Source: Amphiscolops sp. MND2022 (lineage: Eukaryota). From it: DNA of 64,000 bases. The position numbers and the translations under genes were made by a program. Below, piece by piece: positions 3,271 through 64,000 of this stretch (its first letter is position 1; each line of letters opens with the position of its first letter). The stretch lies in assembly GCA_964187785.1 (NCBI GenBank), contig OZ076411.1, positions 35,154,001 through 35,218,000 on the forward strand. Reading direction: 5' to 3'. Under the pieces are notes generated by a model. The model worked only from the letters and a program-made list of their open reading frames with translations, ran no database searches and was not told where the DNA came from.

Positions 3271-3603
3271 AACTCTCCAAAGGTATTCGTTTCGAGTAAT
3301 TTTTTAAGGGACCTACTATGTTCGATTGAAAAAATAATCGCTTCTTTGCGGCATTTTGGTGAATAGTTTGTCTTTGTCTTATAAAATGGTTTTGTTTAGT
3401 ATTTTTCAGTTTTTATTGATTATTCTTTCGGCTCCTTGTGCAAATTTTGTCTTCCTCTGATTTGCTATTTGGTAATTTCACTACTCCCTTGATGTAGACA
3501 CAATGTACTGGGTAAGACGGGCCTAACCCATCCTGCACAGTACGAGTGTCTACTGGGTTCTTAGTATTGGTTGACCTCTCTTGAAGCAGGTAGACCGTTA
3601 CAG

Positions 3604-31151: not shown

Positions 31152-31163
31152 TTGCCCTCCCTC
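31152..31163 (-). promoter_or_regulatory. Polypurine tract
   Basis: GAGGGAGGGCAA abuts the TG of the 3' LTR. Confidence 0.8.
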
Positions 31164-31199
31164 ATAGGAGGTTGCGTCCCCGCAATCTAACTCATTCAA

Positions 31200-32135: not shown

Positions 32136-32349
32136 CTCTGTCCAAAATTCGGATTACATCTCCCTCGGCCAGAGGCTGTACGCGACCGCTGCTGATGAGG
32201 AAGGGCGCTGGGACTGGAGCTGCTGGAAACTGAACCTGAAACAAAAATTGATTGCACCCTTCATACTGTTGTACTGAGATCCTGAATGGGACGCGGAAAC
32301 GTGTCTGCTAGGCACTAATTGGTAATCCAATTAGGAAAAAAGGATTGTA

Positions 32350-32630
32350 TTTTTGCTCACGGAAACGTGTTATAAGGACTAGTTGCACAGCGAAGGAACT
32401 AGGATTGACATCCTAGAAAAAAGTAGTTAACACGGAGCTATGTAACCAAGGCACTAGTTGCGCAGCGAAACAACTAGGAAAAAAGACAACCTAGAAAGAA
32501 AGTAAATACTACGGAAACGTGTAACAAGCCGCTAGTTGCGTAGCGAAGCTATTGGGGAAAAGACAAACTTGAAAGTAATTAACACGGAAATGTGTAACAA
32601 GGCACTAGGTGCGTAGCGAAGCAACTAGAA
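32350..32630. repeat. Four tandem 73-79-bp units, each with a CTAGTTGC-N8-GCAACTAG stem-loop
   Basis: CACGGAAACGTG-like anchor at 32358, 32431, about 32510 and 32583. Confidence 0.8.
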
Positions 32631-32699
32631 GGGACCTCTTAAGTGGTTGATAAATAAGCTAAAATGACAGTGAGACAGAAATGTGAATGAGCAGTTAGA

Positions 32700-34880: not shown

Positions 34881-35699
34881 AAGTAGGGAAATCCTGAAAA
34901 ACAGAGTAGCCTTGTTAGGCAGTTGATCAGAGCTAATTGAGGGAAAGGTTTTTTTGCGATAATTTCAAGTTACTTTCGAAGTTTTTGAAAAAGGGTTTGT
35001 GTTTGTTATTAATGTGGACCGGTGGTGAGTTGAAGTCGGTTAGATCAGAAGGTAGTAAGGCAGTACACATGGTTTCCGCCAAACGCTGCGTGCATGTGTT
35101 TGCGCGGAGATTGTAAGGCCTGGTTTTCATGTCGCGGAACTGAGCAGCGACGTGTTCAATTAAGTTTCGATGTTCTTTCGGAACAGGTGAATGGGGTGCT
35201 GGATCTTGAAGACAGCTTGACTTCTTACCTGATTGGATTGTGAGAGTGGCGATCGTCTGAAGACCAGGAGATTGGAAAGGTGACGGTATTTAGTCACTGG
35301 AGTTGAAGACAGGTAATGAAGGATGGTTCGACGAGTTAGCAGTGTTTCCTGTCGACTGTGGGGTTAAGGAGGTATGGGGATTTTGATGAGCAGGACTGCA
35401 GAGGCCGTTGTTTAAAATGCATGCAGCACCTATGCGATGTTTCGTGTGTTGCGTTCAAGTCGTTATTCCGTGTTGGGCAATTCGAGTGGACTCGTTTAAC
35501 GGGCTGGGGTAGGTTAGTGGACCTAGGCCAAAGAGGTTTGGACCTATCGCAATGAACAATCATTTCTTTAGATGTTGCGATTTCTTTAGTTTTGTATGTG
35601 ACATCGTTGAAACAGTCGAGTATCAAACATGAGCCTTTCCACGGGGTGTGGAACATAGGCGTTTGGCCAACTGGAACCATTGGTGTGTGGAGCAACACT

Positions 35700-46500: not shown

Positions 46501-46527
46501 TGAAAGAAAAAAGTATTCTTTTCACAT

Positions 46528-46545
46528 ATCTCACTCCTGTCACCA
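46528..46545 (-). promoter_or_regulatory. Primer-binding site, tRNA-Leu-like (other copies end at 41648, 43313, 44928)
   Basis: TGGTGACAGGAGTGAGAT matches the complement of the 3' end of animal tRNA-Leu(CAG), TGGTGTCAGGAGTGGGAT as I recall it, at 16/18. It lies directly inside the LTR boundary. Confidence 0.7.
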
Positions 46546-46816
46546 TTTTAACTAGCTTTTTACTAGTTTTCAATTGGTTTCATCTCTTGATGCGTGGGGC
46601 GTTTGTTGGGGTAATTGTGTTTTCTATGTCTTCAAAGTGACAGTGGGTATTTCTAGAAGAGAAAAATTATAAAGAAAGTGAAAACTTTAAATTATCTTCA
46701 AAGAAAATTGAGAAGAGTAAGTTTTTGGCGAATAAATTGCTTCTTGCACTTTTTGATAAAAATTCTGCAGGTGCAGAACCTCGATTCAGTTGATGAAATA
46801 TTAAAATCTGCACTGT

Positions 46817-47225
46817 GTTTTGGACACATTTCTGGGAGGTTTCTAAGAATATATTTTTATTTTTCGGTAGTTTTCGGTGCTCTGCCTTCTCACGTTCAAA
46901 ACTCCCGTCTTGTTTGTACGCCACAATAATACGATGCACAGAAGGTTTTGAGACCAAAAGGTCTTTCAAACTTTTCGATTCAGAAAAGTTTTGAAGGAAT
47001 TTCTGAATGACCTTTTTTCTGGTTTCATCACTGGTTTTCCTCGGACCCATAATTTCAATGCTTTCAGAAAACGTGAATTCAAAGACTGAGCGTTTGAGCG
47101 GCAATGAACATGGCTAATGAATTTTTTTTGTCAACATTTTTTGGCGGGTGTTTAATTAGCGAATTAAATCGAGCGTTCACTTTTGCATGTTCAAACTACC
47201 TGTTGGTTCGGTTGCTACAAACAAG
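46817..47225 (-). mobile_element. Tc1-like transposase N-terminal (HTH) fragment replacing part of the outermost LTR copy
   Basis: MGPRKTSDETRKKVIQKF..SKSLKDLLVSKPSVHRIIVAYKQDGSFER resembles the Tc1 paired-type HTH. About 380 bp of LTR sequence is absent at this position. Confidence 0.6.
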
Positions 47226-48118: not shown

Positions 48119-49509
48119 ATGGCACAATTGAAAGAATTGAAAGCTTTTGTGGTGGGGTGGACGGGAGCTTGTGGAGAACAATTAGTGAAACTACTTGCAA
48201 ACCGTGGTACATTCAAGGAAGTGATTCTTCTTGGCCGTCGGAAAATCGATTTTCCTGAAGACGATGCCCGCTCAAAATTGAGACAGGTAACGTCATTTTT
48301 CGTTGTTCTGTTCATTGAAGTGGTTTAATAATTTCGAAAAAGTTAGCATCTGCTCTCATTATCATTTCCAGTCGCTTTTTCTTGGTTTTAAGTGAATAGA
48401 GTTAATCCAGAAGTGACCAGAAAACTTCTCAATTATGCCTTATATTTAAAGAGCATCGAAAGGGTTCAAAGGATTTTTTCTACACTTTGACTTTTTGACT
48501 TTTTTCTCAGATTCCCCGCTCTGATTTTGATATTTCAACCAGGAAATAATCCTTTTGAGGCCAAATGTGTCTTTTTTGGACACTGTGCGACTTTTTTCCA
48601 ATTTCACAAAAAGCTTCTCGCTAAACCACAAAAAGGGTTCTTGATGCTCACAGTTAGGAACAAGTTTTCGAAGCTCAAGGGTCCTTCCTTCAATTATTTT
48701 GTGGCACCGTAAGTTTTGAAGTACTTGGCGCTTTTTCAGCCTCACCAGGGTGTCGACTAATACTGTTCCTGGCCATTTTCATTGTATAGAATATATTTTG
48801 TTCATGATATTGCTTCCAAATAGTTATGTGATGGGAAACCGCATATGAGTTTCAATGGTTGTCCCAATTCAGAGCTTTTTCATGTAAAGTGTTCAAAATT
48901 TCATGCTCTGTGATGCTTCGATGGCGTTCGCACAGCAACTGATCCCCTTGTGAGAATTGTTGCGATGAAAATTGTTGATTTCAGGAAATAGTTGATTTCG
49001 AAGATCTGCCCAAAAGTAAAGAGCTGTTCGCGGGCTGCGATGTAGGCTATTGTGCATTGGGAACCACTCGAATGGAATCCGGGTCTTCGGGTTTTATTAA
49101 AGTGGATTACGATTATATCATGAGTGTGGCGAAGTTGGCCAAAGAACAGGGCTGTAAGCAGTTCCACTTGATATCTTCCGTTGGAGCTGACAAGAAAAGT
49201 AAGATTTTGTACAGCCAGATCAAAGGAAAAACCGAAGAGGAAATTGCGGATCTTGGGTTCGATCAGTTCATCATCTACCGACCTGCTTTGTTGCTCAGAG
49301 GGGAGAAAGCTCGTGGTGTCGAAAAGTTCTACGCTGCAATAATAAAACCTGTCACAATTTTCAAACCAGAGCGCGGTCAAGTATCTAGCGAAGCCGTTGC
49401 TAAGTCTATGGTCCAACAGAGCCAATGTTTTGGAGTAGAAGGAACCGAGAAGAGGGTTCTTGTCACAAATGGCATCATCCACAAACTCGCCAAAGAGTTA
49501 GCTGATTGA
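48119..49509 (+). CDS. HTATIP2: Oxidoreductase HTATIP2/TIP30-like atypical SDR, 2 exons (48119-48286, 48985-49509), 230 aa
   Basis: AFVVGWTGACG..VILLGRRKIDF..Q|EIVDFEDL..DVGYCALGTTR..GFIKVDYDY..AKEQGCKQFHLISSVGADKKS..Y..IKGKTE..YRPALLL matches TIP30. Phase-0 GT-AG intron. Confidence 0.92.
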
Positions 49510-49624
49510 ACAGATAAAAGCGGTGGCTTGACCTAGTGATTCCCCTGAATGCTAAATTTTCCTCTATCTTCCTTGATTTCTACAATTTTTGTAGTTTTTA
49601 ATTTTGCTTGAAGTGTGTCTTACA

Positions 49625-49846
49625 AGTAGTAAAGGAGGGGGGGGTTATGAACGTAAGATAGATTTCTTATGCACGTTTTGGGCTCCCAACCGAAATTATT
49701 CTAAGATAGATTTCTTGTGCACGTTTTGGGCTCCCAACTCGAAAACTTTCAAAGTCATAAAGCTCAAAGGTCAAACTGATTCTTTATTCAAAATGTGTGC
49801 CATATGTCAAGCTTTGTTTACATTGCAAAGCGATGAAGGTTTCTTA
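49625..49846 (+). repeat. Polinton left TIR with internal 48-bp tandem unit
   Basis: Reverse complement of 63210-63459 apart from a 26-bp gap and a few substitutions. The AAGATAGATTTC.. unit occurs at 49655 and 49703. Confidence 0.95.
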
Positions 49847-50226
49847 ATGGTTTCTATACCAAGAGAAACGTTAACTTAGAAAGATTTCGAATCTTATTGA
49901 TACAGAAGACTGCTGACTGTCCTTTCGTGACATTCTCACAGAGATAGAATAGAAAAGTACCGTTTGGACAAACTTTGAAAGAAATCGAATGTTATATCAG
50001 AGCTCACAAGTGAATGAAAATCTTCGCTCTTAAAAGCCCATAATTACGATTTCTTACTGTTCCGGAAAATTGAAAAGCTAAACTGTCTCAAATTTTCCTT
50101 CACGGTGCCATTCTCCTTCAAAAAAGTAGTTGAATTTCCTAGTACGTTTTCTGCTCTTTTTTATCTTGAGAAATTTCAACTTGATATGGAATGGCACCGT
50201 GAATATTTGAAAGGTTTCACTCTGGA

Positions 50227-53200
50227 ATGAATTTTTCATGCCAACATTGTGGGAAGATTTTGGCTTCCCAGCGAGCTTTAAGCAATCATATGAAAACAAA
50301 ACATGGAAATATTGAACAGAGCACCAAAATATTCCACTGTGGACACTGTCCTACAGGTTTCACCCAATCAAAGAATTTGTTGAGGCATTTACGCTCCGTC
50401 CATAAAATGACAAACCAATTCCGATGTTCTACATGTCCCAGTTTTTATGGTTGCTCTACAGCTCTTTCTACGCATGAGAAGGAGTTGCATTCCACTGGAA
50501 ACGTCAAACGCTCTCTTCCAGAAAATGTTTCAACTGTCGCATTCTCAACAAAAGCTTTGAAATCACATTTCCAAATTCATCGATTGAAACTTGGGGAGTC
50601 GTCGTTTATTGAACCTTTCAATTGCTTGATTTCTTTGAAAGACAAAATTATGGGATTTGTCAACTCGATTTTGGAGGTTGAAGGCAACATGAAGATGGGG
50701 TTTTCAATGAGCGTGCGTTTACGCAAACCTTTAGTTGACGATTCGACCGAAGCTTTTTTCAATTCAAGCATGGCCAAGCTATCGCTGGAATTTACTGAAG
50801 AGGAGTTCTTGGAGCACTTGGATCAACTGATGAGCCAACTCAACGTGTTTGCTACTGGTGGCTCAGGCTGGGTTGTGGAAAAAATGGAGAGATTTGAAAT
50901 CAAGACTGCAAAATGTGCTACTGTGGTTGCTGGTTCCTACATCAAAACGCCCCCTATTCTGCAGAAATTGAAAAGAAGCCTTTTGAATATAGTCAATAAA
51001 AAGGACAATTTCTGCTTCCTGTATTGTGTTGCCGCGGCGCTGTTCTCTTTCGTCGGTCGTGCCTTTCGACCCAAAACACATTTGGAAAATGTGCATAAGC
51101 TACATTTTAATGCAAAACAAATGCCCATGCCACTCTCTGGTATTCGATCCTTTGAAGTTAGAAACCAATGCTCAATCAATGTCTATCAGTTAGATGGGAG
51201 AAAATTGATCAATATCTACAGTAGCAAAAACAAAAGTCACAGAAGAAAAGTTAATCTTTTGCGATTGGTTGAAGGGAAACGGAGTCACTATTGTCTCATC
51301 AAAAACTTTTCAAACCTTATTCATCATCTTTCTCGCTCTCCGCGGAAAAGGTCAACTGGTCCGAAAAGTCGATTCTGCAGGAATTGTTTCCAACCAGTTT
51401 TGAAACAAAATATGGCCAGGCATTCCACTTTTTGTGAATCCAACGATCCTTTGGAAATCCTAATGCCGAAAGACGACCGATTACTCCAGTTTGTGAATTG
51501 GCAGAAAACACAGCAGTGTCCATTTGTTGTGTACGCTGATTTGGAGGCATTGAATGTTTGTCAAACTGAAACCCACAGCCTCTCGACAAAAACGCGGGAG
51601 ATTGAGCGACAGTTTCCTGCTAGTTACGGTGCTGTTCTGGTCGATAACAAGGGTTAGTGTTTTCATTTATATTTTCCAACAATTAATCAACCATATTTCA
51701 ACTATAATTGGTAATTTTAGCTGGAGCAGTTGTGAAAGAGTCCTTTTATCGTGGTCGAAACTCTATATCGAAGCACCTGAACACTTTACGACAATGGTCT
51801 GTCTGGTGTTACTCAGAAAAGCAAAAGTTCCGTTGGCTCAAAATCCCAAAAGCTGAGCGCGAAAGGATCCTAAATGTGCATTTTGCCGAGTGTTGCATCT
51901 GCGGTAAAGAAGCTGAAGTTTCCACACGGGTGATTCACCATTGCCATTTGTCTGGAAAAGTCTTTGGCGTGGCCCACTCCAAGTGTAACCTGCAAGCAAG
52001 AACAACAAATTTTCTGCCCGTATTCTTCCACAATTTTTCGCGCTACGATTCGCATCATATGTTGAAAAATTTGAAATTGGAGAAGGGTGAAAAACTTTCA
52101 GCAATCGCCAGAACTGATGAGACTTTTACTTCAATTAACTTATCTATGCCGGTGGGAAGCTACACTGACAAAAAGAACAGAATTGTCAGGCTGTTTCATT
52201 CATTGCGATTCCTTGACAGCTTGCAATTCATGTCACAAAGTTTGGAATCATTGGCTAAGACATTGAAGGCTGACGATTTTGCACTCCTTCGTCAACATTT
52301 TTCTGGTGTACCTGATCAGGTGTTCGAAAAACTGACCAAAAAAGGTTTTTTTCCATACAGCTTTCTGGACAGCTTCCAAAAGTTTGATGAACCGTTGCCA
52401 CCCCTCGGAATTGATTGGAAAAATACCCTCACTGGGACAGTGGATATAACTCCTGACCAATACAATGAAGCTGTTACTATCTATGAAGCTTTTGCTTGTA
52501 AGAATCTGAGAGATTACCACGATCTCTACTTGCAAACGGATGTTTTTCTGTTAGCTGACATTTTTGAAAAATTTAGAAGGGTTTGTCTCAAGGTGTACAA
52601 GCTTGACCCGGCTCATTTCTACTCAGCTCCGAACCTCAGTTGGGACGCGATGCTGATCTCAACGGATGCAAAGTTGGGCTTATTGGATGAAATTGACAAA
52701 CTTTTGTTTTTCGAACGTGGAATTAGGGGTGGAGTTAATGGTGTCGGCGAGATTCGACATTTCTGTGCCAACAACGGTTTGCTACCTCATCACAACCCTA
52801 GCAAAGCTACAACGTTTGGAGCGTTCTTTGATGTCACGTCTCTATATGCGGGCACAATGCAAAAAATGATGCCCATAGGCAATTATAAATGGAACACCGC
52901 GCTAACATTGCAACAAATTCTCGATACTCCCGCTGATGCAGATGTCGGTTTCTTTGTCGAAGTTGACCTCCTGTATCCAAAAGAACTTCATGATACTCAC
53001 AATGGCTTGCCTTTGGCACCCGAGAAACGTCAAATTATGCCTCAATGGCTGTCTGCTTACGCTAAATCTTTTGGCTTGAAGCCGAACAAAGTCCCTAAAC
53101 TGATTGAAACCCTCTTTGACAAGAAAAACTACGTCTGTCACTACGAAAATTTGAAATTTTATGTAAAGCATGGATTGGTTGTGGAAAAACTGCATCGTGT

Positions 53201-54101
53201 GTGCGAGTTTAATCAAAGTAAATGGTTGGGTGTCTACATTGAAAAAAATACCATCATGCGTAAGCAGGCTGAAAATGACTTTGAAAAAAACTTTTTCAAG
53301 CTAATGAGCAACGCTTGTTTCGGAAAAACAATGGAGAATCTACGCAAGCGAAGTAAAATTGCTTTTGTGGGAAACGTTCAACAAGCTGAATCAATGATTC
53401 AAAAACCATCTTTCAAATCATTCAATATCGTCAATGAAAATCTGGTCAGCGTATCGTTCAAATCGAGCAGTGTCCTATGGGACAAACCAACTCCGGTGGG
53501 AGCATCAATTCTTGACTTGTCCAAACTTTCGCTTTACAAATTCCATTATGAGCAAATGGTACCCCGCTATTCTGCAGCTAAGTTGAAATTGGCCTACAAA
53601 GACACGGATTCGCTGCTTTATTGCGTCGAAACAGAAAATTTGTATCAAGACATGGCCAGTTTCAAACACCTTCTCGACTTGTCTGATTATCCTAAAGACC
53701 ACTTTCTATATGACCCAACAAACAAAAAAGTCCCTTTAACTATGACGGATGAGCTCCAAGGCAAAGTTCTGAGAGAAGTCGTCTGTCTCAGATCCAAGTT
53801 GTACAGCATCGACTTCGTGGGCGGAAAGAAACAGAGTGCAAAGGGCGTTGCCAAGTCTGTTAAAAAGACGTTGCATCATGATCTTTTCAAAAAGTGCCTC
53901 CTCTCGAAAGAACAAGTAACCAAGACCATGTTTCAACTGAAGTCCGTCAATCACCAAATTGTTGTTAATTCTGTCGAGAAAATAGCATTGAGTGCTTTTG
54001 ACGACAAGCGCTACATATTGAATGATGGGATTGCGTCGCTAGCGTATGGTCATTATGCCATTCCAGTTCCAGATCAAGGTATTTTTCGTTTTTTAATTTA
54101 A
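50227..54101 (+). CDS. polB: Protein-primed family-B DNA polymerase with 3 N-terminal C2H2 fingers and an endonuclease-VII-like His-Me module; exons 50227-51652 and 51721-54101 (1268 aa)
   Basis: ExoI VYADLE, C.IC..HHCHLSG..AHSKCN, ExoII FHNFSRYD, and polymerase motifs FDVTSLY, KLMSNACFGK and YKDTDS. The 68-nt GTTAGT..TTTTAG intron joins the two ORFs in phase 1. Confidence 0.93.
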
Positions 54102-54138
54102 AAAATTTTTTTTGTGTATTGAGAGCGTGAGGTTTTAG

Positions 54139-54694
54139 TCAATGTTGCTTCTGACGAAGAGTTGGACTCTTCTAGTGACTGTGATAAATCAGTGAGCTGC
54201 AGCAGCAGCAGCAGTGTCCCCACTTCTGACAGTGATACTGATGCCGACTCTCTCGATGGCAGCTGCTCATCGCGTGCTTCCAGCTACGCGAGTCCTCTGA
54301 AACAAGCTTTAAAATCTGACTTGACAAATTTCAGTTGGTACCGTTTTATTCCAAATGTATCGATCACTTTATATTCACCATTGATATAAACCTAATTGTT
54401 AATTTAGATGCCCCCGATCCTGGCTTCAATCAATCAGCTTCTTGCTCTAACGATGATGAAGAATTACCAGATGTTGTTGATTGGGACACTCTATCTGACG
54501 ACTTGGCTGATGAGCAGCACGATGCACACTTTGATTGTCCATTCATTAATTATGAGGCACAAGAGTCGACTGACGACGACGATGGTTCTCAATTTAATGG
54601 AGAGTATTATTCAACTCAGAAACGACGAAAAATTTTCTCAAGTGCCGAATTTAAACTAGTGAATTATTCTTCCAGTAGCGGAGATGAAAACTAA
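54139..54694 (+). CDS. Ser/Asp-rich acidic coding segments (54139-54333, 54408-54694), possibly extra 3' exons of pPolB
   Basis: The two acidic ORFs can be joined to pPolB by phase-1 introns 54079-54138 (60 nt) and 54334-54407 (74 nt). The donor sites are weaker than that of the first intron. Confidence 0.4.
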
Positions 54695-54765
54695 TAGCTC
54701 AATACTGCTTCTATTTATGCAAAATGGCGAGGGTATATAACGTTTAAATTCAAAAAGTAGATGTC

Positions 54766-55323
54766 TTACACTACAGTATATCTAAACAATGTATGATATT
54801 GACCATTCATGAAACGAATAATTTCAACTTCTGTAAAGTGTTTGAGTTTTGGATCAATTTCCTTAGGTGCTTTTGTAGGATTCCTTGCAATGTAGTCAAT
54901 CATGAAGAGACAATAGAGCCCGCACAGATTTGAGCTGGCGTTTTGAAGGGTCAGGTTGATTGTCGAGAATCCTGTCTTTCCGTACAGCATCTTCAGACGC
55001 TGAGCGAAAATTTTGTAACGTGACAAGGGTTGACCTAGACAATCCCAATTAAAAACTAGATTTTTCTTCTTTTGTGTCGAGACTGCTCCCAGTAGCAGCC
55101 AATGTTTTCCTACTGCACCCAATGGGGATGTGTTGACAATTTGGAACCAAACCAAACGAGGTCTATAGTACAATGAATGTTTTGATCCTCTCCGCAAAAT
55201 TATCCGTTGTTCGGTCCATCCTGGCTGTTTGGGAAAATTGTCTGCAGACCAAACACCAGCAAAGCTTGGTTTCAAATGTGGATTCTGTAGAACAATCTGC
55301 TGTAATGTTGAATTATCCATCAA
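54766..55323 (-). CDS. Adenain-like (Ulp1-fold) cysteine maturation protease, 185 aa
   Basis: IVNTSP..GKHWLLL, NWDCLGQP and LQNASSNLCGLYC give the His/Asp/Gln/Cys motifs in Polinton PRO order. Confidence 0.92.
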   Translation of the reverse strand: MMDNSTLQQIVLQNPHLKPSFAGVWSADNFPKQPGWTEQRIILRRGSKHSLYYRPRLVWFQIVNTSPLGAVGKHWLLLGAVSTQKKKNLVFNWDCLGQPLSRYKIFAQRLKMLYGKTGFSTINLTLQNASSNLCGLYCLFMIDYIARNPTKAPKEIDPKLKHFTEVEIIRFMNGQYHTLFRYTVV

Positions 55324-56665
55324 ACGGGCTGTTTTTCTTTATGTTGCGCGCTGAGTCAATAAACACTTGACTAAATCGCTCTCCAATCAAAAAAAGTTCA
55401 ATAGCATCATCGAGTGCTTTCTCAAAGTACAGCTTTACAGTCAAACTGGATCCCGTTAGCTCGGGGAAAAGTGTGAAAGTTTTGCTAGCTTCTTCAGTTG
55501 ATGTTAAGTCGAACACGAGAAAAAAATGGTTGTCTGTATAATCCTCAAGGCTGATGCCGTTACTCTTTTGGGTGAATCCAAGAGCGGTAATCGTATTGTA
55601 GTACAATCTCACATTGTTTGTAGTATCCAATGGTGTCCCAGCTAAAGGAACACCATTGCCCCTTTGGATTTCCACTCTTTGCAAGTTGAACTTTTGGTAT
55701 GAGAAAGGAGACTCGTTTAGTGGCGTACTTCGGAACAAGGAGTTTTTAACCATGCACAAAGTTAATCGTCGAATTGGCTCGGTGCCAAAAACATTTTCCT
55801 TTATGAAACAATTTTGCCCGGCTTGAATAATGAAACTTTTGTTCAAACTCTCAATGTACGGATACATTGCATCGCTTTTCACCAGTGCTCTTTCTATCGA
55901 CAATTTAACACTGTCAGTCACTACAACCTTCCTCACAAAAAGCGAAGCCTTCTCGACAATGGCCAAAAGTTTTCCGTCGTGCGCTTTTGCTTCATCATCG
56001 GTGCCTTTGAGATGGATGATTGTGTTATTTGGCGAGCGGTAAAGACGAATATGTAGGGTGACATTGGGCAGTAAAAGTTTTTCGCAATCCAGAAAATCAA
56101 TGTGGAGAGCACCGCATAACTGCATTTTGGATTCTTTCAGTTGAGCAAAATCAGCTGCAAGCTTGTTGAACATTTGATCTTTCTCACTGGACTTGGCTAA
56201 ATAATTGTAGCCTTGACATTTGGCCCATGAAGCTTTACTATCAGTGTCGGTGGTTAATTCAGTTTCCACAAATGCGGAATGTAAGTAACAATTGTTGCTG
56301 TGAGAAATCAATTTCCCATTGAGATACAATTCTGCATGCGAAAAGAGCGTGTGGAGGGTATTGTTGGAAAAAACTGCATCAAAGTCACCTGGTTTTGCCT
56401 TTGTCTTTCCATCCTCATGATAGATTGCCACCTCAACACTGAGAACAATGCGATTCAAGTCAATCAAATTTTTTGCTTCAGCGGCAACAAAAAAATCCAA
56501 CTGTGGTCCGCGACAACCAACATGGGGGAATACTTCTTGATCGTAGGCCCCTTCGTAATTGATCATTACTTCAGGCTTTTCGAAATAGTCTAGAGCGCTG
56601 TGTGTCACTGGTTTTGCAATTTCCGTCGAGTTTCCCACAAAGAGGTTGTTAACTGATGCTGCCAT
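55313..56665 (-). CDS. Major capsid protein (double jelly-roll, hexon-like), 450 aa
   Basis: NNTLHTLFSHAELYLNGKLIS..NCYLHSAFVE, LHIDF..EKLLLPNV.L.I.L.R and F.VFDLT are typical of Polinton MCP; size and position also fit. Confidence 0.9.
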   Translation of the reverse strand: MAASVNNLFVGNSTEIAKPVTHSALDYFEKPEVMINYEGAYDQEVFPHVGCRGPQLDFFVAAEAKNLIDLNRIVLSVEVAIYHEDGKTKAKPGDFDAVFSNNTLHTLFSHAELYLNGKLISHSNNCYLHSAFVETELTTDTDSKASWAKCQGYNYLAKSSEKDQMFNKLAADFAQLKESKMQLCGALHIDFLDCEKLLLPNVTLHIRLYRSPNNTIIHLKGTDDEAKAHDGKLLAIVEKASLFVRKVVVTDSVKLSIERALVKSDAMYPYIESLNKSFIIQAGQNCFIKENVFGTEPIRRLTLCMVKNSLFRSTPLNESPFSYQKFNLQRVEIQRGNGVPLAGTPLDTTNNVRLYYNTITALGFTQKSNGISLEDYTDNHFFLVFDLTSTEEASKTFTLFPELTGSSLTVKLYFEKALDDAIELFLIGERFSQVFIDSARNIKKNSPFDG

Positions 56666-56680
56666 TCTCTGAATTTTTGT

Positions 56681-57244
56681 CTATTGGGAAAATTGAATTT
56701 CAGACAAAATGTCGGACCGACTTCTCTTGGCGCGCGCTTTTTTTGAAATGCTTGAGAGACTATTACTTCGCTTTCTATTGCCTGATGATTGTTTGACATT
56801 TCGTGTAACTCCGTTCTTTGCCTTCGCCGCCGACCGCTGCGGTCCGGGTTTCCGCTCGCCGACGCCGCCGCCCGGCCGAAGGGCAACACCGCTCGGCAAG
56901 TTTGTCTTTACAGTTTCAATGGCAGCCCTTTTGGCGACATTAGTCAACAGCTTACGGCTGGGCTTTTTCTTGCCTGACAAAATCTGTCCAATTTCCGGAA
57001 CGGCGCTTTCTATCAAGTTTTTGCCGACTTGTTTTGCTACAGGTAAGACGTACTTTCTAACTAGTGGAATGGCTACACGACCCATTCGAACAGCAAAAGC
57101 TCCAATGCCACCCCCAGATCCCATCTGTCTGGCTGGTCCACTGAATGTTGTGTGAGTATTGGCTTTAATTTGTGAATCGTAATGGGAATCCATTCCGGAG
57201 CCAATGAAATTAAATTGGTCAATTTGAGCGACTGTACTTTTCAC
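56681..57244 (-). CDS. Basic amphipathic virion core or membrane-active protein (first ATG at 57193)
   Basis: QMGSGGGIGAFAVRMGRVAIPLVRKYVLPVAKQVGKNL followed by an Arg/Lys-rich tail. It sits between penton and MCP, the usual position of the 'Q.G.G' Polinton protein. Confidence 0.7.
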   Translation of the reverse strand: MKSTVAQIDQFNFIGSGMDSHYDSQIKANTHTTFSGPARQMGSGGGIGAFAVRMGRVAIPLVRKYVLPVAKQVGKNLIESAVPEIGQILSGKKKPSRKLLTNVAKRAAIETVKTNLPSGVALRPGGGVGERKPGPQRSAAKAKNGVTRNVKQSSGNRKRSNSLSSISKKARAKRSRSDILSEIQFSQ

Positions 57245-57269
57245 AAATTTCAGAATGAATGATGTCTGG

Positions 57270-58304
57270 TCAGTGTCGAGGTGTTGGTCTAAAAGCCAAA
57301 GTCACATTGGTGCGACCGCAACTCAAGAAGGGAATTTTTTGACCCATTTCATTGGCGAGCGTGACGTTGATTGACTGAAATTGCGATTTAATGACGCGTT
57401 TCCACTGCAGATTGCTGAAACTTTTGTGATTCATCTCTCCCAACGTCTGCACCAAAGCTAGACTTTTAACGGGAATCGATCGCAAGAGTGCCGTCTGCTT
57501 ATCGCCCAATGTTTGGTTTTGCACGAGGTCGCAATACAAAAACATGGTATGGCTGCCTGCATTCAAGTCAACTGGCCATTTTCCAACATGCTTGACAATT
57601 GTGTTTGATGCAGATTCTGTATCGATCTCTTCCACTGCTTCTTTTTGTGACTCACCACAATCAATGATTACATTCGTGCCCAAAATGTTTCGCAAATCAT
57701 TGGACTCGGTGAAAATTCTCAACCCATATTGTTTGTGATTTCCGCAAAATTTAACATGTAGTTTTCTCGTTACATTGTCAACTTTCCATGACAAAAGTGA
57801 TAAGACATTGTCAGGGGATGATGAGATTCGTTTTCTTCCAATTTGTTCTTCTCCCATGGCAATTTTTGTGATTGATGCTAAAATTGAATCGACCGATGTA
57901 TAACATCCCGGTTTTAGGCGGTGCTTTACAGGAGCTGTGTAAAACGGGAGAGTCGAAGCAGGAGATTGACTCTCGAATGCTGCAGGAATCGCCATTGAAA
58001 TGGCACCGGGTCGGTTGTGCTTGCGTGGTCGCTTCTCGACTGGCGACTGGATGTTTCGTTTGTATACTGTGAATTTTCCCACAGTCACATTCTGGATAAT
58101 ATTGGGCCAAGCAATTTCCCGTAGAGCCACCTGACACTCGCCGGAAAGATGAATTGGTGTCGGTAAAAGAGTCGTAAAACTGGACAATGTGTTTTCGGGA
58201 AAAGTATCCATAGAAGCATTGGAAATGAGATTCATGGTGAATTCTTGGTTGCAACTTGAATGCTCAACACTTGCTGACAGTCCGTCCATCGTTGACACAG
58301 TCAA
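57270..58304 (-). CDS. Minor capsid protein (penton-like); start uncertain (TTG 58304, ATG 58289 or 58235)
   Basis: NLISNAS..FPEN..SSF..LLP.PI.LSGE.QVAL.EI.WP and MFLYCDLV..LGD..TALLRSIP are Polinton penton motifs. Confidence 0.88.
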   Translation of the reverse strand: MTVSTMDGLSASVEHSSCNQEFTMNLISNASMDTFPENTLSSFTTLLPTPIHLSGECQVALREIAWPNIIQNVTVGKFTVYKRNIQSPVEKRPRKHNRPGAISMAIPAAFESQSPASTLPFYTAPVKHRLKPGCYTSVDSILASITKIAMGEEQIGRKRISSSPDNVLSLLSWKVDNVTRKLHVKFCGNHKQYGLRIFTESNDLRNILGTNVIIDCGESQKEAVEEIDTESASNTIVKHVGKWPVDLNAGSHTMFLYCDLVQNQTLGDKQTALLRSIPVKSLALVQTLGEMNHKSFSNLQWKRVIKSQFQSINVTLANEMGQKIPFLSCGRTNVTLAFRPTPRH

Positions 58305-59482
58305 TTTGGAGCGAATCGCACGAGTTCAGGTTCGTAAAATTTTCCTTGTATAATTTCGCCGTCGCAGTCTTTGACAATATAAGTTGGAGGGTTGTTGGTT
58401 GGTATTGCCGCAATTTTAAACAATTCTTCCGTGAACTGTATTTTGTAACCTCGATGAAAAGTGTCAATCTTGCGCCTAATGCGAACTTGTTGGCCAATTC
58501 TGAATTTTGGCTTCTTTTGGGCGTTGGTGTGACAGAGAGAAACTAAATAGTTGACGTCCTTTTGTGAAACCGAAGACGGTGCCAACTTTGTCATACGGTT
58601 CACTCGGTTGTTAATGATTGCCACAAATTGATCAAGTTTGTCAAAATATCTACTTTGGTCATGTTCGTGCATGTATTTGAAAATTAACGACTTCAAAGAT
58701 CTGATGTTTCTTTCGGCTAAAGCAGATTTTGTCTCGCTTTTGGTGGAATAAATCTCAATTCCACGTTGACTGCAAAAAGTGGCAAATTCGCCCGAGAATT
58801 CACGACCGTTGTCGACCCAAAGTTTTTCTGGTTGGTGTGTTTCACGACAAATTTTGGGATTTCGTGACTTGTCATTCTTGGCGAATATTTTTTTCAAAGC
58901 TTCCCTACACGCATGGGCCGTTTTCACCTTGATGGGTTCAACCCATAAGTAACGACTCAGGACGTCAACAGCGACGAATAGGTATCTGATGCCGGCATTA
59001 GTGTTTGCCAGTTTTTGCATGTCTGCCAAGTCTATTGACCAAATTTCGTTCAGTCTATAGCTAATAACCTTCAACCGTGGAAAACGTTTTCGGGGTAATT
59101 TGAATTTTGTGTAAGTTTCGCTCGAGTTTAAATAACGGTCTACATCTTGTGGCCGGAACTTTGATGCTTTAATCAAGCTTCGTCTACTCCCAAAAGCTGA
59201 TGTATTTCCAGGATTCGTGTAGTGATCATGAATTTTTGGAAACGCAACTGCATAGTCTCCGTCCTTTTCATCATCGAGCAAGACTCGGCTTTCTCGACAA
59301 TGTGAACACAAAAAATTGTCGTGATATTCTTTGCTGTCTGTTAGCCCGCTGCACTTGAAGTGAATCCATCCGCAAACGTGGCACCAAAGCGATGGAGTTT
59401 TCTTGGAACCTTTGCCGAGACTTTTTTTGCATGATCCACAAACCCACTTCTTGTTTCCCATTTTCAGAAATTTGTAAGCCAC
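58301..59482 (-). CDS. Retroviral-like DDE integrase with N-terminal PHD finger (first ATG at 59461)
   Basis: WSIDLADM, LWVDNGREF and KSALAERNIRSLK give an intact D-D-E triad. C-terminus KFRIGQQVRI..F.RGY..FTEE.F. N-terminus CGSC..CHVC.W.H.KC..CSHC. Confidence 0.93.
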   Translation of the reverse strand: MAYKFLKMGNKKWVCGSCKKSLGKGSKKTPSLWCHVCGWIHFKCSGLTDSKEYHDNFLCSHCRESRVLLDDEKDGDYAVAFPKIHDHYTNPGNTSAFGSRRSLIKASKFRPQDVDRYLNSSETYTKFKLPRKRFPRLKVISYRLNEIWSIDLADMQKLANTNAGIRYLFVAVDVLSRYLWVEPIKVKTAHACREALKKIFAKNDKSRNPKICRETHQPEKLWVDNGREFSGEFATFCSQRGIEIYSTKSETKSALAERNIRSLKSLIFKYMHEHDQSRYFDKLDQFVAIINNRVNRMTKLAPSSVSQKDVNYLVSLCHTNAQKKPKFRIGQQVRIRRKIDTFHRGYKIQFTEELFKIAAIPTNNPPTYIVKDCDGEIIQGKFYEPELVRFAPN

Positions 59483-60153
59483 TGATTAGGTACGGTTTCG
59501 CTATCAAGCTTCAGTTTCTTGTAAGGCGAGGCACCGGCAGCAAGTCTAATATGATGTTGATTTTGACTGCTAGTATGCCTAGCATAAGTGTTTGCTAGTA
59601 AAAATTGAGGAAGTCTGAGAACTTCAACCAAAGTTAAAAACTTTTTCGGTAGCTGTTTGGTATTAACCTGCAGTGCTGACAGAAACTCTACTACACTGAT
59701 TCCAGTGTCCTGTTGATCCAAAATTATGGTATGATTGGTATCATCTAATGTGGTTCGCTCACAATCTTCAATCTTTTTCAAAATTTGCCTCGACCTCTCA
59801 ACTTTACCACCCGTGACGCCAGATTCCAGTAAATTCGATAAAACTAGATCGGACGGTTTTTGGCGTGCTTCATTCACTTTCTCACTGCTTTTGCTGATAT
59901 CTTTTTCTGTGGGATACCTTGAATTTAAATTCAACTGGGCTACTAGAGCGTCCTCTGATGACTGTTTTGAGGGTTCAGAAACATCCATGTCTTTTTCTTG
60001 TCGGTGAAGGTAGTCTGTGTCTTGACCCAGATTCGAAAGTATATGTTGCTTTTGTTTTTCGCGAGCATCTGGCTTTTTGACTTGTTGCTTCAAGGATATA
60101 AACTCCTCGTGAGTGATTAAAATAAGATCGCGTAAGCTACTGCTTGCTGTCAT
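59464..60153 (-). CDS. Conserved Polinton protein of unknown function (PZ-like), 229 aa
   Basis: Intact ORF tightly packed between INT and the next gene. The C-terminal half (I.G.S..EFL..LP..LL.N..W) resembles Polinton PZ-type proteins from memory. Confidence 0.55.
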   Translation of the reverse strand: MTASSSLRDLILITHEEFISLKQQVKKPDAREKQKQHILSNLGQDTDYLHRQEKDMDVSEPSKQSSEDALVAQLNLNSRYPTEKDISKSSEKVNEARQKPSDLVLSNLLESGVTGGKVERSRQILKKIEDCERTTLDDTNHTIILDQQDTGISVVEFLSALQVNTKQLPKKFLTLVEVLRLPQFLLANTYARHTSSQNQHHIRLAAGASPYKKLKLDSETVPNQWLTNF

Positions 60154-60478
60154 GGCAATTTTTCAAATGATTCAGAACTGACGGAATGACTAGTTTCAGC
60201 AAACGCATTCCTCTGTCAGAGCCTAACACTTGACGTTTTCTTTTCAAAGAGACGCGTCTCTTGGTGCAAATTGTTTCAATGTTCGTTTTTTCGCGTGAAA
60301 GCACAGCCATTTTTCGTTGAATGTTGTTTTCAAGTTTCACTTTTCCCTTCACTACATTGAAAATGCAATCACAAAAAAATTTAATTAACTCATCAGAACA
60401 GTGGAGAATAAAAAACTTTTTCAGGGTAGGTGAAAACTTTTGGTATAAATCAAGAGTATAATAATTTTGTGAATTCAT
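60137..60478 (-). CDS. Small basic Polinton protein (PW-like), 113 aa
   Basis: LIKFFCDCIFNVVKGKVKL..KRKRQVL..LLKLVIPSVL resembles the conserved 'CEC..N+L.G.V.L' Polinton family. Confidence 0.6.
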   Translation of the reverse strand: MNSQNYYTLDLYQKFSPTLKKFFILHCSDELIKFFCDCIFNVVKGKVKLENNIQRKMAVLSREKTNIETICTKRRVSLKRKRQVLGSDRGMRLLKLVIPSVLNHLKNCHDSKQ

Positions 60479-61151
60479 CGTTTAGTGAAACAAAAAGTTG
60501 ATCTGTAGCACAATAAAAATGAGTTGGTACGTCTGCAGAGCAATGAGAGCAATATCTCAAGTTTCTATTGCTTCGAACATCCAGATCAATCATCAAATGA
60601 CCGAATGGTTCCTGCGTAGCCCTTTTATATGCCTTCATTAAAGTTGATCGCTCTCCTAGTTGACGACCCAAGATTCCAATTTGCTCTAAATCTCGCGGGC
60701 TGTTGAACAGAATCATCTGAGTGACATTCAGGTCGATCGTCTTCGAGTTTTTACATTGTTGAAAAAGGTTATGTCGCAGAACCATTAGATGTACGTTTTT
60801 GTGACGTCCAGCAATAACTAGGTCTAGAAACTCTTTAGTTTGAGCAGCTTCATCATACAAGTCGTCGATAACAACAAGAGTTCTCTGCTTCAAAGCCTCG
60901 CTTCGCTCGACAGCATTCCACTCCAAACCTTGAACAAGGTCAAGATCGACAGCTTTAGTCGAACACTCAAATCTAAGTTTTTCGTAGGAATCTTGATCGT
61001 GTTTGTAAAAATAGATTATTCTATCGAAAGACGGTCGGAAAATTTTCTCTTGGTTTGAAATCATCCTTCCAATTAAGCGTGTCTTGCCACAGCCAGCAGG
61101 CCCGACGACTGAAATGAAGCAATGCGGGTTAGTGCTGATTCTTTTGTTCAT
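60450..61151 (-). CDS. A32/FtsK-like DNA packaging ATPase
   Basis: Walker A GPAGCGKT, Walker B LVVIDD, AGRHKNV and ..HNLF..KTIDLN..LFNSPRD. The ATG at 61151 overlaps the upstream stop (ATGA). Confidence 0.93.
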   Translation of the reverse strand: MNKRISTNPHCFISVVGPAGCGKTRLIGRMISNQEKIFRPSFDRIIYFYKHDQDSYEKLRFECSTKAVDLDLVQGLEWNAVERSEALKQRTLVVIDDLYDEAAQTKEFLDLVIAGRHKNVHLMVLRHNLFQQCKNSKTIDLNVTQMILFNSPRDLEQIGILGRQLGERSTLMKAYKRATQEPFGHLMIDLDVRSNRNLRYCSHCSADVPTHFYCATDQLFVSLNDEFTKLLYS

Positions 61152-61504
61152 CGTTTTGGACCGGGTAAAACGTGGCCAACGCAAGCTGATAAAAGTGCCA
61201 AGACGCCTGATGCAAATTTGCTCTCTGAATCACAAAGCGACAGAAAAATTATACAAAAAGATATTACTGCGAGTATGATAGCATAATGAAAGAAAACTAG
61301 GAGTAACGATCTCTCCACGCGTGAGTCACAGCAATTGAAGTTGAAGGGAGGTCTTTCTTGATCAGTGTTATCGAAAATTATCCTTTCAAGATTTGGACCA
61401 GACAAATCAGCGTAGTCAAGTTGATCTTCTTGATCTCGGGGGTTTTCGTTCAACGTCAACTCGCTACAATATCCACTGCTGCGACACGTATCGATTGTGC
61501 TCAT
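61148..61504 (-). CDS. Small protein with two C-terminal hydrophobic helices, 118 aa
   Basis: SLLLVFFHYAIILAVISFCIIFLSL and FASGVLALLSACVGHVLP. Its stop overlaps the ATPase ATG. Confidence 0.7.
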   Translation of the reverse strand: MSTIDTCRSSGYCSELTLNENPRDQEDQLDYADLSGPNLERIIFDNTDQERPPFNFNCCDSRVERSLLLVFFHYAIILAVISFCIIFLSLCDSESKFASGVLALLSACVGHVLPGPKR

Positions 61505-61588
61505 AATCGTTAGTGTTTCGAATGCAACGTTTTCCCTCTAGTTCTGTTGCGACCGAACTCAAAGAGGTTCAAGGTAAGAAATGAAAAT

Positions 61589-62002
61589 TCAGAAAGGGAA
61601 TGCGTCGAAATGTTCGCGATGGAAAAGTTTGACAAACGTCCAATAAGCTATTCCGGAGACATGTCCTAGAAGCATATTATTCCGAAAGGATTGAGTTTTT
61701 GTAACGGTATAAACGTAACCAGGTCCTACGTTCTCAAAACTTCTCATGTAGCCATGAGCATCATGAAAAATTGCATGCAATCTCAATATCTTTGAAAAGT
61801 TAAAGTAGTCGTCAAGTTTGCTGTCTCCTGGTCCTATTTTGCCTCCAGACTGGGCTAAAGCATTGACTTTTCTCAAATCAACATTTTCATCCAGATAACG
61901 GCACACTGCTAGAAATGCGTTTTTAGTTGTAGTGTTTCTTGGGAACAAATAATTTACGGCGTTAAAGTTCTCACAAATTTCTCGCGCTGAAAACATTTTC
62001 AC
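61589..62002 (-). CDS. Phospholipase A2-like protein (parvovirus-type motif arrangement); first ATG at 61996
   Basis: KIGPGDSKLD (Ca-loop-like GPG) followed by LHAIFHDAHGY (HD..Y catalytic-like motif). Confidence 0.55.
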   Translation of the reverse strand: MKMFSAREICENFNAVNYLFPRNTTTKNAFLAVCRYLDENVDLRKVNALAQSGGKIGPGDSKLDDYFNFSKILRLHAIFHDAHGYMRSFENVGPGYVYTVTKTQSFRNNMLLGHVSGIAYWTFVKLFHREHFDAFPF

Positions 62003-62049
62003 TTCGTGAAAAGAAATGTATTGGATCCAACTGATTTCTAGAAAAGTTT

Positions 62050-62937
62050 TTACAAAAATGAAGTATCAATTATAGTGTCTTCATTGAAGAGAGAAAATTC
62101 AGAGTTTGTGCTTTGGTCGTCTTGTGTTTCATGTAATGGCTGATAGAGACACTCGTAGCATGTGCATTGAGCATTTGAAACACCCAAGTCAATGTCCAAC
62201 GTTCGGCTGTGCTCCGTAAGGAAAAGTCGCCCCATTCCCCGTTGTAGAAGATCGATGTAGGAAATTATTGTGTCTTTGAAAGGTGCGTCACTTTTCTCGA
62301 GCTGCAAAAGTTTCTGGAAAACGTAAAGTGCCTTCTCACTCTCGGGACAGTTTCCTAGGGAATTGTGTTTCTCAAATTCCCATGAAGATACAAACTTACA
62401 ACCCAAAGTCTCAGTTGTTTTCACTTTGATTAGCTTCTGCATCCTTTCGCCTCTGATAATTAGCGATTCATCGTGGAACATTGAGATTTCCGTTTTCATA
62501 AAGTTTTCTGGGTAAGAGACGGTTAGTAGTTTGACTTTGGCATTTTGTACATTGGATAGCGTTTGAGAAACAGACTGTTTTATCAACTTCTCGGCTCCAG
62601 AAAAATAGGGAATGTAGAGCAGTATGTGAGAGTGGTTTGAAGGCATGGATTGGCAGAAATCGTTAAGTTCACCATCGCTATTCTCTCCGTTTTTGTGCTT
62701 CCTGTAAATGAACTGACAACCATTCGAGTTTGTTAGTGTTTCGAGCATCTCTGCAACACTGACTGGCATCTCGGAATTACCTTCTTTTTGAGATTCTCGA
62801 TTTTCATCAGTGGCAAACAGAACAAGCCAATAATTGAATGGTATTTCGCGAAATACAGTAGTCATATTTTCTGATTTTTCTTCTGAGTTTGCTTCTGATT
62901 TGTAATGAGGATACTTTAATAATGGCGTTTTCGCCAA
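62050..62937 (-). CDS. Polinton ORF of unknown function, about 271-295 aa (first ATG at 62865)
   Basis: Long uninterrupted ORF, co-oriented with the structural module and next to the right TIR. No motif recognised apart from C.C..C near the acidic C-terminus. Confidence 0.6.
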   Translation of the reverse strand: MAKTPLLKYPHYKSEANSEEKSENMTTVFREIPFNYWLVLFATDENRESQKEGNSEMPVSVAEMLETLTNSNGCQFIYRKHKNGENSDGELNDFCQSMPSNHSHILLYIPYFSGAEKLIKQSVSQTLSNVQNAKVKLLTVSYPENFMKTEISMFHDESLIIRGERMQKLIKVKTTETLGCKFVSSWEFEKHNSLGNCPESEKALYVFQKLLQLEKSDAPFKDTIISYIDLLQRGMGRLFLTEHSRTLDIDLGVSNAQCTCYECLYQPLHETQDDQSTNSEFSLFNEDTIIDTSFL

Positions 62938-63209
62938 CCGTTATCTGGACAATTGCATCAATTTCATGATAGGAGGTGTCATAGGTGCCTTTTATGGGAG
63001 TTTTCCATGGAATTTCCAGAGTCTAAGTACATAGATACTGCTGTCGCTGTGTTTTTCAGTTTTCCGGAACGAACATGGCTTCACTTTGTCAGTTTATCAA
63101 AATCTCTTTACTTTTACTTCTTAATGGCCTCGGGCCTCATGTTCAGCAGAGAAAAGGTTGGACTGCTTCATATTTTCATTAATGCTAAGATTATTCACTT
63201 TTATTGCAG

Positions 63210-63459
63210 TAAGAAGCTTCATCGGTTTGCAATGTAAATAATGCTTGACATACGGCACACATTTTGAATAAAGAATCAGTTTGACCTTTGAGCTTTATGA
63301 CTTTGAAAGTTTTCGAGTTGGGAGCCCAAAACGTGCACACGAAATCTATCTTAGAATAATTTCGGTTGGGAGCCCAAAACGTGCATAAGAAATCTATCTT
63401 AGAAAATTTTCGCTTGGGAGCCAAAAACGTTCATAAACCCCCCCCCCTCCTTTACTACT
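63210..63459 (-). repeat. Polinton right TIR
   Basis: Inverted copy of the left TIR with 26 extra bp (63401-63426), ending ACTACT. Confidence 0.95.
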
Positions 63460-64000
63460 CTTACATTATAGCTAAATTGCAACTTCTTGAAGAAGTTCCT
63501 GCTGATTGCAATGCCTGATACATATTGAATTTTATCAAAGCTTATGAATGCCTCTATTTTTATTGTTTTTCTAATACCCCTGCATAGTGGGATAATAGAA
63601 TTTTAATTAGCTTTCGATTTTGCCTCTTTTGATTGAACATCGTGAGCGGAGTGTTAACAACTTCTCATTGTATTTATCCAGAAGTCGTCATAAACTCAAG
63701 ATCATAGAAACTGCGAAGCCAACTAGAGGTTCCTGTATTTGCAAGACTATAAACATGCAAAGATCTGGCTTCTTAATTATTTAGCATCCTAAGTATATAC
63801 ATGTAACCACATCAAAAGTATTCGAATATTTACTGAACTTTTTTCATACTAATTGTCGAATAATCGAAAAAGTTATTTTCTACGTACATTTTTTGAATAA
63901 CGAAAAGTCAATGGAGTATATACAAATGCTGTATCATATTTTGGATTACTTCAACAAAAAACATAGTTACCAATTGCTAAAAGAAATGTGGAGGACTTTA

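Follow-up and report, generated by a model that had tools for sequence, protein, structure and literature searches.

The closest described counterparts of the element considered here are the Polintons, or Mavericks, and the adintoviruses. The element occupies positions 49625-63459 (13,835 bp) of a 64,000-nucleotide stretch of contig OZ076411.1 (hereafter, the window). Mavericks are recognized by a 6-bp target site duplication (TSD) and by terminal inverted repeats (TIRs) that end in (AG)3 or (AGT)2; intact elements of vertebrates were reported to lack introns (PMC8097293). In nematode Mavericks, the core genes are intronless and introns occur in cargo only (10.1101/2022.07.12.499685). Some protist polinton-like viruses (PLVs) carry group I introns (PMC12220804), and the gaps reported in an Oxyrrhis PLV lack splice sites (PMC12721341); in the accessible text of 10.1101/2023.10.06.561300, the word "intron" occurs 0 times. 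Our literature search, which did not extend to Repbase and most subscription papers, so that an earlier notice is possible, found no inherited spliceosomal introns in the polymerase of an animal Polinton; within the same limits, it found nothing on acoel Polintons beyond one repeat table and no HUH genes in animal Polintons.

The element in the window is a complete Polinton/Maverick. It shares with group-I Mavericks of vertebrates and other hosts the 6-bp TSD, the (AGT)2 end motif and a size within 12.7-24.6 kb, and with vertebrate Mavericks, the gene blocks atp-pm-pz and int-minor capsid-pw-MCP-pro (PMC8097293); it encodes a protein-primed family B DNA polymerase (pPolB), an RVE integrase with the DDE residues, an A32 ATPase, an adenain-like protease, a double-jelly-roll capsid protein and a predicted single-jelly-roll one. 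It differs from the Mavericks of that study in that every gene except the polymerase lies on one strand and in that, whereas intact Mavericks are defined by intronless core open reading frames (ORFs), the polymerase here is spread over two frames and two tail frames, being interrupted by three intron-like gaps and probably ending in an acidic tail. With the adintoviruses, the element shares PolB, rve integrase, ATPase, adenain, hexon, penton and a PLA2-like gene, as well as OTU-like Cys/His residues in the N-terminal region of PolB; however, adintovirus integrases carry a C-terminal chromodomain (PMC8502044, 10.1101/2024.03.25.586562), whereas this one carries an N-terminal PHD-like finger instead, and a pX-like tail was not recognized on the PLA2-like protein. 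A motif search of one supplement of PMC8502044 gave no match. On account of the integrase, we file the element as an adintovirus-like Polinton/Maverick, the label that it bears in a preliminary description of this DNA, and not as an adintovirus in the strict sense. The PolB motifs appear Beta-like in terms of the Alpha and Beta adintovirus classes.

Polymerases of the same type, often with an EndoVII domain, are found in Polintons of corals and soft corals (Dendronephthya gigantea, Montipora foliosa; ~41% identity), but the long distant matches (~1,200-1,350 amino acids) are single ORFs, nearly all of which end a few residues past the last conserved motif. Spliceosomal introns within a Polinton-like element have a parallel in the introner-bearing Maverick-Polinton-like elements of dinoflagellates (10.1101/2025.03.18.643946), but those introns are mostly transposon insertions that followed integration, whereas here one site appears to have been passed down within a diversified clade and, as far as the window goes, the putative introns are not repeats. 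A complete Polinton alone is ordinary; the unusual part is that the replicase of a mobile lineage appears to be split by introns. Here we argue, at a probability of roughly 0.8, that this is a recently inserted, complete Polinton in whose lineage the gene for the protein-primed polymerase has gained spliceosomal introns.

The interrupted polymerase gene

The polymerase region reads from the left end and comprises the following features:

50227..51657, plus strand: pPolB piece 1 (476 amino acids) with C2H2 zinc fingers (Pfam zf-C2H2, E 7e-6), a probable terminal-protein region (predicted), vOTU-like Cys/His residues and Exo I
51650..51720, plus strand: intron-like interval 1, limits approximate, inside the exonuclease domain; low GC, GT...AG, site conserved in relatives
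51708..54101, plus strand: pPolB piece 2 (797-codon open frame) with an EndoVII/HNH-like domain, Exo II-III and Pol A-C (Pfam DNA_pol_B_2, E 1.6e-21; Endonuclease_7, E 1.2e-5)
54080..54140, plus strand: intron-like interval 2, limits approximate; lowest 50-nt GC 0.20, GT...AG; close relatives end here
54123..54389, plus strand: open frame, acidic and rich in Ser, that is probably coding exon 3; weak similarity to the tail of 1 of 4 relatives (5/1000 shuffles)
54335..54410, plus strand: intron-like interval 3, limits approximate; GC 0.28, GT...AG ends
54398..54694, plus strand: acidic open frame, probably the last coding exon, in which the motifs PDPG[FL] and PFIxxEA occur; matches 3 of 4 long polymerase tails

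The preliminary description reported no evident frameshifts, but the polymerase occupies two frames, 50227-51657 and 51708-54101, which are separated by a stop codon, the break falling at ~51.65-51.72 kb. Interval 1 has GT...AG ends and a lowest 50-nt GC of 0.18, compared to at least 0.22 in the ORFs. The Exo I-III and Pol A-C motifs are all present, spread over the two frames, and the catalytic motifs of the element, some loss of which had been envisaged as a sign of decay, are intact on alignment. The vOTU-like residues C263 and H354 are each kept in 28 of 29 aligned polymerase rows, although Pfam gave no match in this OTU-like region; a vOTU-like protease has been described as part of the polymerase architecture (PMC11071308).

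To follow the break through the relatives, each polymerase piece was searched separately; 191 proteins were examined, of which 41 span the break site. Twenty-four of these 41, with identities in the range of ~44-93%, end at the identical residue, and in all 24 this residue is G, S or C, as expected of xGT codons, against a background frequency of G/S/C/R in these relatives of 0.23. Beyond the shared end residue, there is either a stop (immediate in 15/24) or a short hydrophobic run. Fourteen of the 41 are colinear into piece 2, with zero residues for the gap, and several of these lie on contigs longer than 100 kb, whereas one relative (P0182) reads through ~36 unrelated residues in frame exactly at the break site, which marks the insertion in the protein itself. 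The start of several close relatives of piece 2 coincides with the break site as well. Two proteins, P0159 and P0178, run through the site without interruption and shift frame further on; although a script scored them as ending, they were relabeled and are not among the 24.

The break was then placed on a tree of 45 rows and 259 columns of piece 1, comprising the window together with 25 relatives that carry the break, 13 that are continuous and 6 distant ones (P0028, P0186 and P0187 were omitted as too short). Its distribution requires 2 changes, compared with a mean of 14.6 upon shuffling (0/500 as low), and a single clade with support of 100/99 holds 24 of the 26 break-carrying rows, the window included; the root of the tree lies on a long branch, and two gains are indistinguishable from a single gain plus a single loss. 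Since the break was inherited across a deep divergence with both ORFs remaining open, it points to an intron rather than to decay, and it seems very likely that interval 1 is a genuine spliceosomal intron. No Rfam family was found at gathering thresholds, which argues against a group I or group II intron. One subclade mixes the break-carrying P0142 and P0153 with the uninterrupted P0005, P0141, P0144 and P0178, which would imply that the intron was lost there, that it was gained once more at this site, or that recombination took place.

Downstream of the polymerase lie two acidic open frames, 54123-54389 and 54398-54694, which went unmentioned in the preliminary description. Among 120 polymerase matches, 96 reach the end motif and 4 extend more than 40 residues beyond it. 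When the last acidic frame was compared with these 4 long tails, 3 matched (0, 0 and 11/1000 shuffles), sharing PDPG[FL] and PFIxxEA, one of the three being the protein of Convolutriloba macropyga; the fourth tail, a short one, gave no match. In these 3 relatives, the tails are fused to the polymerase, but they are too diverged for exact colinearity at intervals 2 and 3. The last acidic frame has no ATG upstream of its conserved motifs. In P0025, inspection by eye revealed a non-homologous hydrophobic stretch at the position of interval 3, in frame and free of stops. All three intervals are ~60-75 nt long, have GT...AG ends and compatible flanking frames, and rank among the stretches with the highest AT content in the element; they resemble the introns of a neighboring host gene, three of which, delimited by eye, span 57-77 nt. 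Intervals 2 and 3 probably attach the acidic tail to the polymerase, and we regard it as likely, on the sequence evidence, that they are real introns. The intervals are mutually dissimilar (107, 7 and 180 of 300 shuffles as high), which argues against a single introner family, and blastn gave no match for them in the rest of the window. In its F-x3-E spacing, the tail motif agrees with the histone-binding motif of Spt5, but the Val at +7 is missing (PMC8886531), and the resemblance is taken as a lead only.

The named polymerase matches all come from animals, the best and closest one being from the acoel Convolutriloba macropyga, at 53% identity; on this ground, the host is probably an acoel.

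Ends and age of the element

The borders of the element are defined as follows:

49619..49624, no strand: left TSD (6 bp), same as 63460-63465
49625..49850, plus strand: left TIR with the AGTAGT end, a G-run and ~2 copies of a 48-nt repeat; no stable hairpin
63205..63459, minus strand: right TIR with 2.8 copies of the 48-nt repeat, as judged from the TIR comparison
63460..63465, no strand: right TSD, same as the left one

The TSD, CTTACA, is identical on both sides, as had been claimed. Both TIRs are present as well, with AGTAGT at both termini and ~225 paired nucleotides, but they are not identical: the 48-nt repeat is found in ~3 copies (2.8) on the right and ~2 on the left, the length of the G-run is also unequal, and 8 of the 225 paired columns are mismatched, 7 within the inner third and 1 in the outer two-thirds. 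A count of near-identical copies had been proposed; at the protein level, the matches of the two polymerase pieces form 90%-identity clusters of 45 and 54 sequences, and one protein of the relatives search was found identical on 7 contigs, counts that may include repeat assemblies. Given the perfect TSD, the near-identical outer TIRs, these clusters and the protein shared by 7 contigs, the element is probably young, and recent mobility appears likely. Relatives at the DNA level were sought in one scan of bacterial and archaeal genomes, which returned 203 pattern matches, 0 of them confirmed.

Folding of the TIRs yielded no unusual or stable hairpin (z -0.4 to -1.1), and an 18-nt match between the inner TIR arms was dismissed as being at chance level (59/500 shuffles). 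In the inner TIR, both arms contain a short ATG frame that opens with a CxxC pair (49793-49879, plus strand; 63265-63194, minus strand); by eye, the differences between the arms are mostly silent or conservative, and the frame may represent a leader exon or a tiny gene.

Proposed life cycle and rival explanations

The life of such an element can be envisaged as follows. The host RNA polymerase II would transcribe it in the nucleus, and the spliceosome would excise three introns of ~60-75 nt, resulting in a single polymerase that combines zinc fingers, a terminal-protein region, a vOTU-like protease, an exonuclease with an HNH-like insert, the palm and an acidic C-terminal tail. Once the linear genome is excised, this polymerase would replicate it, starting at the AGTAGT ends with a protein primer, whereupon the integrase would insert copies, leaving 6-bp duplications. 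Packaging of the DNA may fall to the capsid, penton, ATPase, protease and PLA2-like protein. Intron 1 would have been transmitted through many transposition events and, therefore, would be a heritable trait of a lineage that stayed mobile. Since the polymerase is interrupted, the element is intact only if spliced; the earlier view of an intact Polinton with a full virion module thus stands as regards identity, module and youth, and is conditional as regards intactness.

Several points weigh against this scenario. In the relatives, the break site was read at the protein level, and the 24 relatives share ancestry, so that 24/24 does not stand for 24 independent events; splicing itself is deduced from sequence. 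Intervals 2 and 3 are less well supported than interval 1: the middle acidic frame matches just 1 of 4 tails (5/1000 shuffles), and the G/S found 8-10 residues past the motif in 11/11 close, short-ending relatives falls within a span of three residues, a loose test. The assignment to an acoel host hangs on a single named match at 53% identity. Finally, the two TIRs are set apart by an indel and 8 mismatches, which means that the insertion is not brand new, and the sizes of the 90% clusters and the count of 7 contigs may include several assemblies of one genome.

The rival that comes closest to the preferred explanation, and departs from it on the virion step only, holds that the same spliced element now moves only within the germ line, its capsid module being a legacy of recent ancestry and no particles being formed. 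Virions of Mavericks are reported not to have been observed (10.64898/2026.06.19.733378, PMC8097293), and the gain of introns may suggest a prolonged nuclear residence; yet the ORFs of the major capsid protein (MCP), penton-like protein, ATPase and protease retain their full length and their motifs and overlap tightly, and MCP relatives of 420-450 amino acids are conserved over a wide range. We consider this a serious possibility, albeit not the favored one. A polymerase that has decayed into a pseudogene, with the gaps produced by chance insertions or frameshifts and the element non-autonomous, would account for two frames with an intervening stop; broken copies are frequent among the matches, and degradation has affected 96% of the Maverick loci of vertebrates (PMC8097293). 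Decay, however, would hardly strike one and the same site in 24 relatives at ~44-93% identity, always at an xGT residue and in one clade, while leaving the flanking ORFs open and all motifs in place, which makes this explanation highly improbable.

If there were no splicing at all, the polymerase would have to be made as two proteins or via ribosomal frameshifting, and the acidic frames would be small genes or noise. Split terminal-protein genes are known in some polintons, but there the split falls between the terminal protein and vOTU (PMC11071308), whereas here it lies inside the exonuclease domain. Moreover, the first ATG in piece 2 is located downstream of Exo II, the length of the gap varies among copies, as exemplified by P0182, and the last acidic frame offers no start ahead of its conserved motifs; accordingly, we deem production without splicing quite improbable. 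Yet another route to introns is exemplified by the dinoflagellate elements, where introners colonize Maverick-Polinton-like elements post-integration (10.1101/2025.03.18.643946). Recent insertions of this kind into the single integrated copy studied here are, however, hardly tenable: the first site is common to a deep clade, which largely refutes the idea for intron 1, and the intervals resemble neither each other nor, by blastn, any other part of the window.

Beyond the spliced-Polinton scenario as such, one may imagine a still-infectious acoel polintovirus, in which intron retention would toggle between truncated, tail-less and full polymerase (the tail handling histones), an HUH nickase would free the provirus, and a PHD-guided integrase would direct its return. 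We hold this extension to be improbable; if true, the reading as an infectious lineage would be a testable answer to the question of how Polintons leave and re-enter chromatin.

Regardless of such extensions, a heritable replicase intron means nuclear expression and dependence on the host spliceosome, as is the case with adenoviruses. The coexistence of intron-bearing and intronless relatives offers a compact system in which to study how a DNA virus gains and loses introns, and split reads would be a cheap, direct read-out of element transcription. There is also a practical side: at least one large survey required a polymerase ORF of at least 900 amino acids (PMC10748475), whereas the longest polymerase frame here has 797 codons, so that screens based on ORF length would drop this clade or call it degraded. 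The HUH-like gene and the PHD-like integrase, described below, are leads on excision and target choice.

Minus-strand genes and surroundings

The gene count is 12, with the polymerase on the plus strand and 11 ORFs on the minus strand that run from the right end, as had been described (at least 12 genes, pPolB from the left). The minus-strand genes are:

54766..55320, minus strand: adenain/Ulp1-like maturation protease (184 amino acids); Pfam Peptidase_C48, E 5e-4, and Peptidase_C5, E 0.012; His and Asp motifs, Gln/Cys in the alignment
55313..56665, minus strand: MCP, double jelly-roll (450 amino acids); AlphaFold2 (AF2) mean predicted local distance difference test score (pLDDT) 89.5, Foldseek E ~1e-15
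56681..57193, minus strand: basic protein (170 amino acids), PW/virion core-like by position (PMC8097293)
57270..58289, minus strand: minor capsid (penton)-like protein (339 amino acids); atlas features 0.97-0.98 to Preplasmiviricota clusters
58301..59461, minus strand: RVE integrase (386 amino acids) with an N-terminal C4HC3 PHD-like finger; Pfam rve, E 1.6e-11; D/D/E motifs
59464..60153, minus strand: ORF229, PZ by position (synteny); no significant match
60137..60478, minus strand: ORF113, PM by position (synteny); no significant match
60450..61151, minus strand: A32-like packaging ATPase (233 amino acids); Pfam Pox_A32, E 1.1e-6; Walker A and B
61148..61504, minus strand: small protein (118 amino acids) with two hydrophobic, probably membrane-spanning segments, as read from the sequence
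61589..61996, minus strand: parvovirus-type phospholipase A2 (PLA2)-like protein (135 amino acids); GPG and HDxxxY motifs by eye
62050..62865, minus strand: clade-specific protein ORF271 (271 amino acids) with a predicted HUH-endonuclease/origin-binding-domain-like N-terminal fold; fold and conserved residues

The gene overlaps given earlier proved exact for ATGA (4 nt at 61148-61151) and for those of 17 and 29 nt, but the MCP/protease overlap is 8 nt counted from the ATG and becomes 11 nt only with an upstream TTG as the start. The label PW, previously attached to 60137-60478, probably has to move: by the gene order of PMC8097293, this ORF is more likely PM, and PW would correspond to 56681-57193. 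The 170-residue basic protein has no Pfam or PHROG match, and the 118-residue protein gave only sub-threshold DUF matches in Pfam. In the 135-residue protein, the GPG and HDxxxY motifs are, we assume, of the PLA2 type; no Pfam or PDB match was obtained.

A full virion module of MCP, penton-like protein, ATPase and protease is supported by the predicted proteins. The MCP has no Pfam match, and its profile finds no PDB sequence, so that it was identified by folding alone: the AF2 model, built from a 51-row alignment, matches the MCPs of iridovirus, mavirus, Sputnik and PBCV-1. Its relatives number 3249 at E <=0.001. The atlas clusters of the penton-like protein include Sputnik V18/19 (26% of the members of that cluster), and the protease matches, while under the curated cut-offs, come with the catalytic residues present. 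Whether such proteins still form particles is nearly an even question, with the balance tipped slightly to the negative. In the integrase, the PHD-like finger (PHD E 0.039-0.041) has the C4HC3 ligand order and is a lead on target choice; no chromodomain was found in the last 90 residues at E up to 10, and the next gene begins 11 nt on.

ORF271 has 50 relatives, and in 36 rows, H78 is kept in 35, H80 in 34 and Y118 in 34, the HxH pair (H78, H80) lying at the start of the strand 79-84. The model (pLDDT 66.5; residues 210-271 unreliable) best matches the origin-binding domains of adeno-associated virus (AAV) Rep, pMV158 RepB and polyomavirus, with VIA Z of 7.0-7.1, under the caution line of Z 8, and a root-mean-square deviation of 3.1-4.1 over 102-129 residues, tied with designed ferredoxin folds. 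ORF271 resembles the HUH and origin-binding domains (AAV Rep, pMV158 RepB, polyomavirus LT, papillomavirus E1) in its predicted fold over ~100-130 residues, in the conserved HxH followed by hydrophobic residues and in the conserved Tyr, but differs from them in that Z is only ~7 and a helicase domain is lacking. The named matches in BFVD are mostly parvovirus NS and Rep proteins, at E of 1e-4 to 1e-2; Foldseek found no match in PDB at E 0.001, and Pfam assigned Rep_OBD to 1/36 rows only (E 0.15). Judging from the model, homology to HUH enzymes is an even bet, and a role of ORF271 in excision seems doubtful; the lack of a special TIR hairpin gives no support for a hairpin substrate of an HUH enzyme. 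An Argonaute MID domain, proposed for ORF271 by the atlas (0.82), is not supported by its fold, and a profile match to FGF (E 0.04) was treated as chance.

The flanks of the element hold intron-containing eukaryotic genes. The plus-strand gene at 12000-15510 encodes C1 and Rubicon homology domains and is presumably DEF8-like; the one at 19720-27000, on the same strand, is Arg/Ser-rich, has several short introns and served as the source of the intron comparison. The neighboring transposons had all been called broken, which holds for the two examined: in the MULE at 9044-11508, with TIRs of ~148 nt (84% identical), the FLYWCH-MULE transposase shifts frame at ~10.4 kb, and the Gypsy-like retrotransposon at 31000-40400 (minus strand) is in pieces, with protease, RNase H and integrase in separate frames and pol in many short ones. 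A hAT/BED-finger-like fragment at 3.8 kb (3763-4203, plus strand), recognized by eye, has no Pfam match. Gypsy, MULE and Maverick are named as the main repeats in an acoel genome paper (PMC6451197), which agrees with this neighborhood but is weak evidence for the host. Tandem repeats are also present, namely, an array with a unit of ~104 bp at 1-3400 and a segmental repeat with a unit of ~1.6 kb (85-92% identical) at 40738-46821, with a related copy at 30465-31151. Immediately to the left of the Polinton, at 48119-49509 (plus strand), lies a host gene that contains introns, encodes an NAD(P)H-binding domain and is presumably HTATIP2/TIP30-like; the Polinton begins 109 bp beyond its stop codon and, possibly, resides in its 3' untranslated region.

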